DNA of 35,452 nucleotides from a virus (Duplodnaviria > Heunggongvirae > Uroviricota > Caudoviricetes), in IMG/VR virus record IMGVR_UViG_2563366975_000004. The stretch is one strand, 5' to 3'. A program made the translations under genes and the position numbers. Position 1 is the stretch's first letter. Each line of letters starts with the position of its first letter. Positions 3,973 through 29,007 of this stretch are shown here, piece by piece. Below the pieces are notes generated by a model. It worked only from the letters and a program-made list of their open reading frames with translations, was not told the origin of the DNA and made no database searches.

Positions 3973-4182
3973 TTACGGCGCTGTTTTTAATCCTGCCGGG
4001 ATTTCGTTATTGTCCATGTGAATAACTTTATCGACCGGATAACAGTTGCCGGGAATTTTCTGTTCCGCTGCGGCAGCCATGCATTCTTTCATTGAGTTGT
4101 ACATGCCGGTGATTGCATCAAGCGACTCACCAGTATTGAGATGTACAGTCAAAATGAGTACGAATAATGTGTTCATCGCCAC
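3973..4182 (-). CDS. Small membrane/secreted protein, YdfD-like by position (69 aa)
   Basis: N-terminal hydrophobic segment MAMNTLFVLILTVHL; lies immediately downstream of the dicB-like gene as ydfD does in Qin. Confidence 0.45.
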   Translation of the reverse strand: MAMNTLFVLILTVHLNTGESLDAITGMYNSMKECMAAAAEQKIPGNCYPVDKVIHMDNNEIPAGLKTAP

Positions 4183-4361
4183 TCTCCGAAAATACCGAGT
4201 TTAAGAAGGGCAATTCTGGAGAGTATGGAATTGTCATTCAGCAGGTAGGGTTCATATTTTCTCATATTGATTGCATCCTCGGTGAAATCCCTGTTACTGA
4301 GCAGAACACCAATATTAAAGCACCCGTCAGACGTATTAACGTTTGGTAGTGACGTTTCCAT
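4173..4361 (-). CDS. dicB: Cell-division inhibitor DicB-like protein (62 aa)
   Basis: 62-aa product with recalled DicB-like motifs (LPNVNTS.GCF.IGV..SN..FTEDAIN.RK); located downstream of a DicF sRNA in the same orientation. Confidence 0.7.
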   Translation of the reverse strand: METSLPNVNTSDGCFNIGVLLSNRDFTEDAINMRKYEPYLLNDNSILSRIALLKLGIFGEWR

Positions 4362-4371
4362 TATCGCGTCC

Positions 4372-4929
4372 TCAACAATGAATTTTTAGCAATTGCTCCA
4401 CAGTCATATTTTTAATTGCGCTCCGGTTTACAAGAGTCCATCCTTGTTTCTCCAGATAAAACCGGAAGGTATCCAGGGTGCAGACCATTGCGTCGTCAGG
4501 AACGGTTTCAGTGAATTTGATATTGCCGTGTTCGTCGAGACGGATAACCAGGGTGCGTCCGTCCCCGTGAATCATTTTGTCGGGAGACGGGGCGTTATTC
4601 TGGCGCAGTTCTGCTTCCATGCGGTCGAACTCAGCAATGTATGCCTCTTTAAATGCAGCGGCTTTTTTGCCAGTGAAGCCCATCACCAGGAAAACGAAGC
4701 CGTTTTTGGTGATTTGGTACATTGGGAGTTTGCGCCCGGTTGAGTCGGTGTATTCGCTTGACACAAAATTGTGCTCAGTGAATTTTGCTGAACAGTCCAG
4801 ATTGCGAATTTTATCCAACACTCGTTCGTGGCGTTTGCCAAAGAACTCGGCGATCGCAACAGACGTAGTGACAGCGCGACCATTTTCGATGGTTACGTCA
4901 GGGTGAGAAAGGGTAAGGATAGTAGCCAT
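4372..4929 (-). CDS. Phage regulatory protein Rha family (about 186 aa, start at internal ATG)
   Basis: Rha-domain motif VTTSVAIAEFFGKRHERVLDKIRNL near N-terminus; GGAGG 8 nt upstream of the ATG at 4929; the 284-aa track ORF extends upstream across an intrinsic terminator so I prefer the internal start. Confidence 0.6.
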   Translation of the reverse strand: MATILTLSHPDVTIENGRAVTTSVAIAEFFGKRHERVLDKIRNLDCSAKFTEHNFVSSEYTDSTGRKLPMYQITKNGFVFLVMGFTGKKAAAFKEAYIAEFDRMEAELRQNNAPSPDKMIHGDGRTLVIRLDEHGNIKFTETVPDDAMVCTLDTFRFYLEKQGWTLVNRSAIKNMTVEQLLKIHC

Positions 4930-5096
4930 GATGGCAGCCTCCGCGATGAATTTGATTAACTCACCACCGAGGTTTTCCACGACCATAAGGGTGGTGAGAC
5001 GTACAGGGGTGGAAATACCGGTCATCACGGAACCCGGCCAGCCTTGCGGCTGCCCTGCACGCCCCACCATAATGCGAATGTGGCTGTGCTTAACGC

Positions 5097-5121
5097 ATAA
5101 AAAAACCGCCTGAGCGCGGTT
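5097..5121 (-). terminator. Rho-independent terminator (minus strand)
   Basis: Inverted repeat aaccgc/gcggtt with 6-nt loop followed on the minus strand by a run of 7 T. Confidence 0.5.
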
Positions 5122-5414
5122 ATGCGCCGTGAATGATTTCGGGTTTCCACGCCCGGCACCCGTTTTATGAGGTGCAGGTGCACTATAATTCCACCCGTTC
5201 TGGTTTTCAATAGCTACATTCAACATTTTCTCTACCTTTCATCACCGAAGTGAACTTTGTTGATGCGGTGCCTGGTGCCTCCAGGTGACGTTAACCAGTT
5301 AACAATTAACGTCGGATACAGAGCATTCCCGTTACGCCCGTAAAAGACCGCTTGTTTTAACTGTTCCGCGTGCGCTGAGCCGCATTCACCGCATCACAAA
5401 ATTCACTTTAAAAA

Positions 5415-5467
5415 GGGCGGCAGAGCAGTCACGGAGTAGAACTGATACCGCCAAAAGTCACCAGAAA
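5415..5467 (-). ncRNA. dicF: DicF small RNA (53 nt)
   Basis: Minus-strand sequence TTTCTGGTGACTTTTGGCGGTATCAGTTCTACTCCGTGACTGCTCTGCCGCCC followed by TTTTT; matches my recollection of E. coli DicF apart from about 2 substitutions. Confidence 0.75.
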
Positions 5468-5802
5468 ATTGATAACAGAGGGCGTTGCAGCGGAGTTGTC
5501 ACTTAAGCGTATGGTCAACCTGACAACCCGGTGTCCTCAACGGGGGAAGGAATAACCCCGCCATACTTACCGCCGCGCCATTTCGCGGATTGCCACAACC
5601 GGAAGCGCACGGTCGACGAAAATTTAACGACAGGCTATCTATGAACCAGCTACCTCACCGAGCGCTTTCGCGTTATGGTCTGACTTTTCAGGGAAATATC
5701 CTTTCAGTAAACTGTCAGTGCCGGATGCTCACCCGTGTCCGGCGCACGCACTCCACCTCACCCGTGGAGAACTCCTTAATCACCAACCCTCAGGAGGGTG
5801 AA

Positions 5803-14574: not shown

Positions 14575-14745
14575 GCGGGTGCTTGAGGCTATCTGTCTCA
14601 GGCATGAACACCAAAAGGCAGATAGAGAAAAGCCCCAGTTAACATTACGCGTCCTGCAAGACGCTTAACATTAATCTGAGGCCATATCTATGCGACACAT
14701 AGAGATTAGCCTCTTACGGACCGAAAGGTCAAGGAGAAGCAGGCT
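14575..14745 (+). promoter_or_regulatory. hok mRNA leader with mok-like upstream reading frame
   Basis: Leader segments gcttgaggctatctgtctcagg and tagcctcttacgg...caaggagaagcaggctATG resemble the recalled R1 hok/sok leader. Confidence 0.45.
14630..14700 (-). ncRNA. Expected Sok-like antisense RNA (position approximate)
   Basis: Inferred from hok/sok locus architecture only; antisense to the mok start region; no independent sequence signature identified. Confidence 0.25.
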
Positions 14746-14901
14746 ATGAAGCAGCAAAAGGCGATGTTAATCGCCCTGATCGTCATCTGTTTAACCGTCA
14801 TAGTGACGGCACTGGTAACGAGGAAAGACCTCTGCGAGGTACGAATCCGAACCGGCCAGACGGAGGTCGCTGTCTTCACAGCTTACGAACCTGAGGAGTA
14901 A
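14746..14901 (+). CDS. hok: Hok/Gef-family type I toxin (51 aa; not in ORF track)
   Basis: MKQQKAMLIALIVICLTVIVTALVTRKDLCEVRIRTGQTEVAVFTAYEPEE closely matches the Hok/Gef consensus as I recall it; AAGGAG RBS. Confidence 0.8.
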   Translation: MKQQKAMLIALIVICLTVIVTALVTRKDLCEVRIRTGQTEVAVFTAYEPEE

Positions 14902-28641: not shown

Positions 28642-29007
28642 ATGGCTGAGCTTCGTACACTCCAGAGCAGAATCAAAACACTGAATACCCGACGGGTGAA
28701 TATTCTGAAGGGGGAGCAGCGTCGTGTCAGTGGCAGTGCACGTGTTTCCCTCAAGCGTCATATCTGGCTGAGGGACGCCGGGCAGTGCTGTATCTGTGGT
28801 CGTGTGGTTGACCTCTGTGACAGTGAACTCGATCACCGAATTGCACTTCAGTTCGGTGGTGGTAATGAGGAGACGAATCTTTGGACGCTCTGTGCCGAAT
28901 GCCATCGACAAAAGTCTGCTCGTGAAGCGGCGAGTGGTATGCCGGACCCGACGCTGCCGGAGGTGTCCGGAGGTAGTGGCAGAGAGGACGACATCATCGG
29001 ACTGTAA
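28642..29007 (+). CDS. HNH endonuclease (121 aa), terminase-associated
   Basis: CxxC...DH...N...CxxCH arrangement (CCICGRVVDLCDSELDHRIALQFGGGNEETNLWTLCAECH); immediately upstream of cos-like region and terminase genes. Confidence 0.8.
   Translation: MAELRTLQSRIKTLNTRRVNILKGEQRRVSGSARVSLKRHIWLRDAGQCCICGRVVDLCDSELDHRIALQFGGGNEETNLWTLCAECHRQKSAREAASGMPDPTLPEVSGGSGREDDIIGL

Follow-up and report, generated by a model that had tools for sequence, protein, structure and literature searches.

We surveyed a 35,452-nucleotide (nt) stretch of a Caudoviricetes genome (IMG/VR virus record IMGVR_UViG_2563366975_000004; hereafter the window) in which a minus-strand open reading frame (ORF) of 284 amino acids (aa), 4372..5226, lies between the small RNA (sRNA) gene dicF and the cell-division inhibitor gene dicB. 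A hairpin followed by seven U residues inside this ORF is very probably the Rho-independent terminator of an IsrK-family sRNA, the opening element of what would be a self-contained RNA switch, placed as a cassette between dicF and dicB. The 99 codons upstream of the in-frame ATG at 4929 do not specify protein; they hold the predicted promoter, IsrK with its terminator, a C4-family antisense RNA and a leader of 57 nt between C4 and the start of rha, with the ribosome-binding site (RBS) of rha. All coordinates are positions in the window, and the cassette, dicF, rha and dicB are all on the minus strand and are read from high to low numbers. The Rfam scan of the dicF-rha stretch gave three families above their gathering scores, DicF, isrK and C4, all on the minus strand. 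The elements are given below with the names of the corresponding sites of phage P1; the letters follow the P1 annotation, in which the site beside c4 is 'a' and the RBS site is 'b'.

5210..5182, minus strand: candidate sigma70-type promoter of IsrK, TTGAAA-17 nt-TATAGT, the best promoter-like site in a scan of 5 kilobases (kb), 10/12.
5175..5099, minus strand: IsrK-family sRNA of 77 nt, equivalent to the P1 a1b1 element and to P4 SeqA (RF01394, 67.7 bits against a gathering score of 50, model positions 1-77 of 77, E 1e-12).
5150..5144, minus strand: GUGGAAA in the hairpin-2 loop of IsrK, which mimics the leader site near C4 and is predicted by duplex calculation to pair with the C4 3' single strand (P1 a1).
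5137..5127, minus strand: IsrK site AUCAUUCACGG, mimic of the Shine-Dalgarno (SD) site, predicted by duplex calculation to pair with the C4 hairpin-2 loop (P1 b1).
5099..5121, minus strand: terminator of IsrK, stem 5121..5104 plus U7 5105..5099 (sequence, fold, hairpin and U tract kept in 16/16 modules).
5074..4987, minus strand: C4-family antisense RNA, as P1/P7 c4, P4 CI and Salmonella STnc1160 (RF01695, 81.9 bits against a gathering score of 45, full length).
5070..5068, minus strand: conserved AUG in the 5' end of C4 (AUUAUGG), equivalent to the Gifsy-1 orf45 start; here in frame with rha and 47 codons upstream of it.
5033..5022, minus strand: C4 hairpin-2 loop GUUCCGUGAUGA, specificity segment 1 (P1 b'; fold, duplex prediction and covariation).
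5016..5009, minus strand: C4 3' single strand AUUUCCAC, specificity segment 2 (P1 a'; fold, duplex prediction and covariation).
4980..4974, minus strand: leader site GUGGAAA, 6 nt past C4, pairing with the C4 tail (P1 a2; duplex prediction, cognate best in 16/17 types).
4949..4939, minus strand: leader site UCAUCGCGGAG, covering the rha SD GGAGG at 4942..4938 (P1 b2; 11-base-pair (bp) duplex with the C4 loop, predicted at -20.4 kcal/mol).
4929..4372, minus strand: rha, Rha-family regulator of 185 aa, antirepressor-like; this is the part of the 284-aa ORF that is truly coding (PF09669, TIGR02681, third-position excess).

A preliminary description of the window had proposed a minus-strand intrinsic terminator within the called ORF, and this is present: the hairpin AACCGC-GCUCAG-GCGGUU (6-bp stem, loop GCUCAG) is followed by the U7 run, the first two U of which are shared with the stem, and together they form the 3' end of the isrK match. 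The terminator is judged real because the isrK model of Rfam matches over its full length and this hairpin forms the 3' end of the match. When the homologous modules were folded one by one, a hairpin of 5-6 bp (-8 to -11.5 kcal/mol) with a 3' U tract was found in all 16, the tract being U6-7 up to the match end in 14 and U6 followed by C in two. Three distinct stem sequences occur among them, with alternatives such as GACGC/GCGUC and CACGC/GCGUG. MAFFT sets the alternative stems out of register, so that four sequences appear unpaired and the alignment gives no compensatory pairs in that helix, but each of these sequences forms the hairpin when folded individually. A plus-strand or bidirectional terminator is ruled out, since the plus strand has its A-run ahead of the hairpin and no T-run behind it.

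The predicted IsrK promoter sits inside the annotated ORF, about 60 nt upstream of the terminator. A -35/-10 pair scoring 8-11 of 12 and ending exactly 6 nt before the isrK start is found in 18/18 homologous loci, among them P1, where it coincides with the annotated P1c4 (= P51b), and Gifsy-1 (PisrK). BLAST homology to diverged phages starts near 5175, the +1 position of IsrK, and not at the ATG at 5226. The sRNA itself consists of two 5' hairpins, a linker and the terminator, and its 5' half is overlapped by a sub-threshold match to c4-a1b1 ('targets of C4', RF03163; 25.7 bits, 5188..5136). By sequence it has the features of an IsrK: a promoter of its own directly adjacent, a Rho-independent terminator at the 3' end, a middle part complementary to the RNA downstream (duplex of -28.6 kcal/mol) and an antirepressor-type gene, here of the Rha family, beyond. 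A stable, Hfq-associated IsrK of about 77 nt which activates downstream translation in trans is known only for Salmonella Gifsy-1 (PMC4825925).

C4, which lies between the terminator and the rha start, was absent from the preliminary description, and one of its segments is complementary to the GGAGG RBS. It begins 24 nt downstream of the IsrK end and folds with a minimum free energy of -47.3 kcal/mol (z = -4.4) into the family consensus, a tRNA-like long stem with two internal hairpins; compensatory changes are seen in 12/27 of its internal pairs, and the sequence has a 3' ACCACC motif and an acceptor-like stem. Compared with the P1 annotation, it carries two single strands complementary to an upstream and a downstream pair of sites, with the downstream pair covering the RBS. 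The leader also contains GGUGGUGAG (4960..4968, minus strand), a repeat of the 5' strand of C4 that is able to pair with the 3' strand of C4, CUCACCACC (4990..4998, minus strand). An alternative pairing of GGUGGUGAG with CUCACCACC in unprocessed read-through RNA is possibly the structure A/B switch of Gifsy-1; both stretches are near-invariant.

The pairing between these elements was analyzed in 22 homologous modules which align almost gap-free. Between C4 and IsrK, 13/16 pairs are changed on both sides and 95.5% of the cells are paired, compared with 31-50% when the partners are slid by 1-3 columns; the covariation score is 0.79 against at most 0.15 for the slid controls, and none of 500 shuffles scored as high. 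Taken separately, the IsrK GUGGAAA site against C4 has 6/7 pairs changed on both sides (98% of cells paired) and AUCAUUCACGG against the C4 loop has 7/9 (93% paired). For the C4 loop and the SD site, 8/11 pairs are changed on both sides and 90.9% of the cells are paired. For the C4 tail and its leader site a 3-column gap shifts the register between types, so a duplex-energy matrix was used in place of the alignment count. In this 16 x 16 matrix the cognate partner comes first in 15/16 rows for IsrK and in 14/16 rows for the leader, with mean energies of -27 (IsrK) and -26 (leader) kcal/mol for cognate pairs against -15 and -16 kcal/mol for non-cognate ones.

The coding part of the called ORF was delimited with 80 viral contigs carrying Rha relatives (79-100% identity; L017-L096), which gave 52 distinct sequences. 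In the extension, 5226..4930, the changes at codon positions 1, 2 and 3 number 48, 51 and 55, with 22 synonymous and 58 nonsynonymous single-nt codon variants; from ATG 4929 they number 88, 58 and 201, with 160 synonymous and 74 nonsynonymous. The coding signal starts only at ATG 4929, and 5226..4930 has no coding signature. This ATG is in frame with the called ORF and has GGAGG 8 nt upstream, and the Rha domain begins 10-20 residues past it (PF09669, 106.5 bits against 29.9, aa 120-204 of the long ORF; TIGR02681, 108.7 bits against 45.95, aa 10-111 of the 185-aa form). The in-frame extension is shortened in 5/52 close relatives, in two of them (L027 and L053) by 1-nt insertions, in the U-run and in the C4 tail, which leave the RNA features intact; elsewhere among the homologous modules, all three frames of L012 contain stops, and the open frame of L011 and L013-L015 closes without reaching the downstream gene. 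The extension is matched by no NCBIfam model and no solved structure. The earlier statements that the 99 upstream codons are not protein and that the real start is ATG 4929 behind GGAGG are thus borne out by the codon-position and synonymous/nonsynonymous tests and by the frame being cut short in these five relatives. That the frame is nevertheless often open has two likely reasons: the conserved RNA parts happen to lack stops in it, and in Gifsy-1 a leader ORF (orf45) that begins at the invariant AUUAUGG is translated and coupled to anrP (PMC4825925). By analogy with orf45, the 47 codons from AUG 5070..5068 to ATG 4929 may be translated at times, with no constraint on their amino acids.

In the 52 near-identical Rha cassettes the variation is limited to six short blocks which co-vary as RNA duplexes. 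Thirteen types of C4 loop and seven types of tail occur, making 17 combinations, and for every combination IsrK and the leader carry the matching sites. Differences of this kind in the specificity segments underlie the heteroimmunity of P1 and P7. We offer only tentatively the idea that the loop and tail segments with their IsrK and leader mimics, at least 13 loop and 7 tail types of which assort independently, form a combinatorial address code, in which co-resident prophages might be under selection for orthogonal channels or for eavesdropping. If this were true, the IsrK of one prophage would unlock the antirepressor, and here also DicB, of another prophage with the same code, and DicB would be gated in many cassette-bearing strains by an RNA switch independent of DicA repression.

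The layout found here matches the designs of P1 immI (a1b1-c4-a2b2), P4 immunity (SeqA-CI-SeqC) and Gifsy-1 isrK-orf45-anrP. Gifsy-1 (isrK-orf45(STnc1160)-anrP; Hershko-Shalev et al. 2016, PMC4825925) shares the order of elements, with a promoter, IsrK and its Rho-independent terminator, about 24 nt and a C4-like RNA which begins AAUUAUGG, followed by a two-site leader and an antirepressor-type gene; IsrK can pair through its middle part with the RNA encoded downstream, and RF01394 and RF01695 match both loci. The two differ in the specificity segments and in the downstream protein, which has an unrelated N-terminus and, between AnrP and Rha, a weak C-terminal match (E 0.001). The orf45 stop overlaps the anrP AUG, whereas the equivalent frame here runs into rha, and the Gifsy-1 module is located after Q, whereas the present one is in the early-left operon between dicF and dicB. 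The published Gifsy-1 model moreover does not include a pairing of the processed RNA with the antirepressor SD, for which the present alignment gives covariation evidence.

The immI region of P1 and P7 (P51 promoters, a1 b1, c4, a2 b2, icd, ant1/2) has an RNA of the C4 family (68.8 bits in P1) and an a1b1 element that is matched by RF03163 and also, sub-threshold but at full length, by isrK, including the hairpin and U run. The promoter lies at the same distance, the first gene has the downstream site at its RBS, and an antirepressor gene comes after it. The specificity segments differ, and the upstream element of the window is a strong isrK and a weak c4-a1b1 match while the reverse holds in P1. 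Unlike P1-type immI, the window has no icd-like ORF coupled to the antirepressor gene: no Icd-like match (NF033153) was found in the extension or in rha, although the P4 ORF has one, and the leader runs straight into rha. A C1 operator as in P1 is not evident here, though no dedicated test for it was made. In P4 (PLE, SeqA, CI RNA, SeqC), SeqA is matched by isrK at 60.8 bits and CI by C4 at 74.9 bits, and the leader is identical to that of the window through the SD and start codon (GGAGGCTGCCATCATGGCTAC). It differs in the spacing of SeqA and CI (about 107 nt against 24 nt), in its Icd-like downstream gene and in its documented outcome, which is premature transcription termination of the replication operon. 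Distinctive of the window are the regulated gene of the Rha family, the lack of an icd-like ORF, the leader frame fused to rha and the location in the dicB operon of a Qin-like prophage.

Taken together with these systems, the arrangement suggests the following mechanism. The internal promoter would drive IsrK, most transcripts stopping at the weak terminator as the 77-nt RNA. RNA that reads through, and any RNA arriving from dicF, would carry C4, which RNase P would cut out; C4 would then pair with the leader, occlude the rha RBS and block rha translation, and Rho-dependent polarity on the tightly following dicB would probably result. IsrK would compete for the same C4 segments, whether free or within the long RNA, so that the RBS is freed and rha, and with it dicB, is turned on. 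The strength of the terminator would set the ratio of activator (IsrK) to repressor and message. The suggestion made earlier, that expression of rha and dicB depends on this region, is very likely to be right. Work on Gifsy-1 (PMC4825925) has documented several of the steps: IsrK stops at its own Rho-independent terminator while read-through gives an untranslated isrK-orf45-anrP messenger RNA (mRNA), anrP translation rises more than 100-fold when IsrK is provided in trans, and STnc1160 is a processed stable RNA from the orf45 region. That the middle of IsrK pairs with a stretch of about 30 nt of orf45 is supported by the compensatory mutations G28A/C162U and G31A/C159U (PMC4825925); by homology this stretch would lie in the C4 region.

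The anatomy, homology, complementarity, covariation and missing coding signature come directly from sequence and comparison, while an active promoter, the position of the 3' end, cleavage by RNase P, the sign of the regulation and polar effects on dicB are carried over by analogy from P1/P7 c4, P4 CI and Gifsy-1 IsrK. By simple criteria the hairpin alone does not exceed chance: a consensus scan of 5 kb gave nine terminator-like sites, and shuffled sequence gave 5.4 +/- 2.2. The scan counts of promoters are also not above shuffles, the single-sequence fold of the terminator is weak (-9.2 kcal/mol, z = -1.0) and that of IsrK is likewise unexceptional (z about -1); reliance was therefore placed on homology and covariation. 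Several observations weigh against the explanation. The shuffle of the single window sequence is marginal for the C4 core against IsrK (44/1000) and better against the leader (3/1000), and in the window the duplex of AUCAUUCACGG with the C4 loop consists of 6 bp and 3 bp over a 1-nt bulge, which is poorer than in other modules. The icd-like ORF which mediates coupling in P1 and P4 is missing, and dicB has an SD of its own. Constitutive STnc1160, the C4 equivalent, strengthened IsrK toxicity in Gifsy-1, which misfits a simple sponge picture, and the authors favour alternative structures in cis together with translation of the upstream ORF orf45 (PMC4825925).

A mechanism of that Gifsy-1 type is possible for the window but, in our judgement, not the favoured one. 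Ribosome loading at AUG 5070..5068 would be decisive and free C4 antisense minor: IsrK would open the cis structure and ribosomes would cross C4 and the leader in frame into rha, giving a 232-aa isoform or merely an unfolded rha RBS. It is consistent with the translation of orf45 when IsrK is supplied and with the lowered activation of anrP after mutation of its first AUG or an early stop (PMC4825925); the AUG lies within the invariant AUUAUGG, 46-47 codons before the rha ATG, and the extension is open beyond it in 46/52 close relatives. Here, however, the AUG has no SD before it, the ORF from it stops after 8 codons in L011 and is interrupted in L012, and amino-acid constraint is absent. The strongest co-varying duplex, that of the C4 loop with the rha SD, would be superfluous in such a model, and P1 and P4 show C4/CI RNA which is processed and acts in trans.

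Control as in P4 we consider unlikely as a replacement for a translation block. While the RNA is being made, C4 would pair with its sites in the IsrK-like element (SeqA) and in the leader (SeqC) and cause premature transcription termination, so that C4 would set the efficiency of the terminator. Such a possibility was raised for STnc1160 (PMC4825925), P4 SeqA and CI are matched by the same isrK and C4 models, and the leaders are identical up to the start codon as described above. The downstream site, however, falls precisely on the SD in most modules (on the start codon in L011), which points to translational control as in P1, and a consensus scan found no terminator-like hairpin between the leader and rha. 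The two mechanisms are not mutually exclusive, because P1 combines a translation block with Rho-dependent termination.

The preliminary description had instead regarded the terminator as mainly attenuating transcription from dicF into rha-dicB. We think it quite improbable that attenuation of the dicF operon promoter is the main role and that no separate sRNA function exists. The terminator does lie in the path of any transcript from dicF, partial read-through of such a weak hairpin is plausible, and in Gifsy-1 read-through of this terminator yields the downstream mRNA. It ends a separate 77-nt sRNA, however, with a conserved promoter only 60 nt upstream in each of the 18 loci, and this promoter-sRNA-terminator unit travels together in phages without dicF, namely cro-cII-O-P phages, nin regions, P2-like phages, P4 and P1. 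The body of the sRNA carries co-varying target mimics; an attenuator would need none of these features, and K-12 Qin has dicF and dicB without the element.

The remaining alternative, a genuine 284-aa protein with an N-terminal 'Ash' domain (PF10554) fused to Rha and RNA motifs which merely overlap it, has in its favour the PF10554 match, the RefSeq annotation, the ATG at -99 kept in most close relatives, PHROG families which include the extension and a same relative frame open through IsrK and C4 in 11/15 modules first examined, but it is barely credible given the lack of third-position excess, the single-base indels that break the frame but spare the RNA features, the stops in other modules, the promoter and terminator within the ORF, the confinement of variation to the six duplex-forming blocks, the same 'domain' before unrelated proteins and its identity in P4 with the obsolete cI ORF over CI RNA, the precursor of which is untranslated.

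The match to PF10554 (Phage_ASH) has 60.8 bits against a gathering score of 26 and covers aa 14-109 of the 284-aa ORF, or 5187..4900 on the minus strand of the window. PF10554 also matches aa 22-85 of the obsolete 'cI' ORF of P4 (L016 8330..8521, minus strand); this ORF covers the CI RNA and, as far as the start of the Icd-like gene, the leader, and is the same phantom 'Ash' translation. Because of the flat codon-position pattern, the Pfam family 'Ash' looks like a conceptual translation of the RNA module; the counts 48/51/55 and 22/58 and the frame-breaking 1-nt insertions do not behave as those of a protein under amino-acid constraint. The first approximately 100 positions of PHROG 995/821/6928/3960 and the RefSeq 'ash family protein' calls coincide with IsrK, C4 and the leader. 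What PF10554 and several PHROG profiles describe thus appears to be an RNA module in translation. P4 epsilon belongs to another family (PF25738), but one study took PF10554 as the epsilon profile. In WP_000935597.1 (the RefSeq entry for the 284-aa ORF, 'Rha family phage regulatory protein'), and in many proteins called 'antirepressor', 'Rha' or 'ash family', the first 100 or so codons, or more, are phantom. The two sRNA genes, the promoter and the terminator that truly occupy the stretch are missing from the annotation.

Prophages of E. coli 042 and of many further strains share 100% identity with this part of the window. The cassette and the neighbouring genes are as follows.

5466..5415, minus strand: DicF sRNA (RF00039, 71.5 bits against a gathering score of 48; 97-99% identical to K-12 Qin around dicF).
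5260..4388, minus strand: 873-bp cassette of promoter, IsrK, C4, leader and rha, delimited by global alignment with NC_000913.
4361..4173, minus strand: dicB, cell-division inhibitor (PF05358, 111.7 bits; RefSeq annotation of the identical E. coli 042 locus).

Prophage Qin of K-12 (NC_000913; dicA, ydfABC, dicF, dicB, ydfD) has the same gene order and aligns to 5651..5261 and 4387..4219, so that 5260..4388 has no counterpart there. Identity is 93-99% on the dicF side of the cassette and drops to 62-75% across dicB and beyond. The right end of the cassette is 50 nt upstream of the -35 element and its left end 26 nt before the dicB start, which itself lies 10 nt past the rha stop; dicB is the likely co-regulated downstream gene and is followed by a DUF1482 gene (ydfD-like) and then an exonuclease. 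In K-12, the source of all DicB and DicF work, dicB comes directly after dicF, whereas in cassette strains it stands behind an rha which would be controlled by IsrK and C4. DicB inhibits cell division and also protects cells against some phages, and therefore its regulation in cassette strains may differ from that in K-12. Between DicF and the cassette there is a partial sub-threshold STnc100-like element (5403..5256, minus strand, 35.6 bits against 47, model positions 22-154), and the same stretch is found between dicF and dicB in K-12 Qin. The P1 record (L099) annotates a 'dicF-like region' at 28792..28893 near tRNA genes, which co-occurs with C4/a1b1 but far apart from it.

The module was found in 188 records by BLAST against phage genomes. 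Both isrK and C4 were present, 24-35 nt apart, in 14/14 diverse phage loci which were fetched, and in these the pair always precedes an antirepressor-type gene (Rha, Ant/KilAC or AnrP-like). Four genomic contexts were seen: cII-O in Stx/ST64B-type phages, nin regions, P2-like phages and P22-like Uetakevirus; the isrK and C4 models also match P4 (SeqA, CI RNA), P1 (a1b1, c4) and Gifsy-1. Annotations of the stretch vary: it is left blank, called a 37-aa 'ash family protein' or joined to the antirepressor as an N-terminal extension. Of 5426 complete E. coli genomes, 2361 (44%) have the module, in a median of 2 copies and at most 9. In the searchable literature IsrK and c4 are still separate, unrelated entries, and no paper was found linking IsrK with the dicF-dicB operon; the present comparison ties together three literatures kept separate in reviews, those of IsrK in Salmonella, c4 in P1/P7 and SeqA/CI in P4.

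Among related loci, 'antirepressor' or 'transcriptional regulator' ORFs of 383-386 aa are called in Stx2a_1447 (L002 844..1995), ST64B (L003 847..2004) and cdtI (L007 841..1989). Their starts lie some 120 codons upstream of IsrK, and they span the module from end to end. A real N-terminal domain in the 383-aa ORFs of these cro-cII phages was rejected, since the changes peak at codon position 2 (40/70/45) and the frame is not a coding one; the real gene in the upstream part of the three loci is probably another, unannotated frame. Elsewhere in the window, two tRNA genes (19277..19349 and 19360..19433, plus strand) are followed by two full STnc100 copies on the plus strand, at 19700..19893 (138 bits) and 20169..20357 (132.5 bits). 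A sok antitoxin RNA at 14577..14748 (plus strand; RF01794, 106.7 bits) implies a hok/sok-type toxin-antitoxin locus in the prophage.

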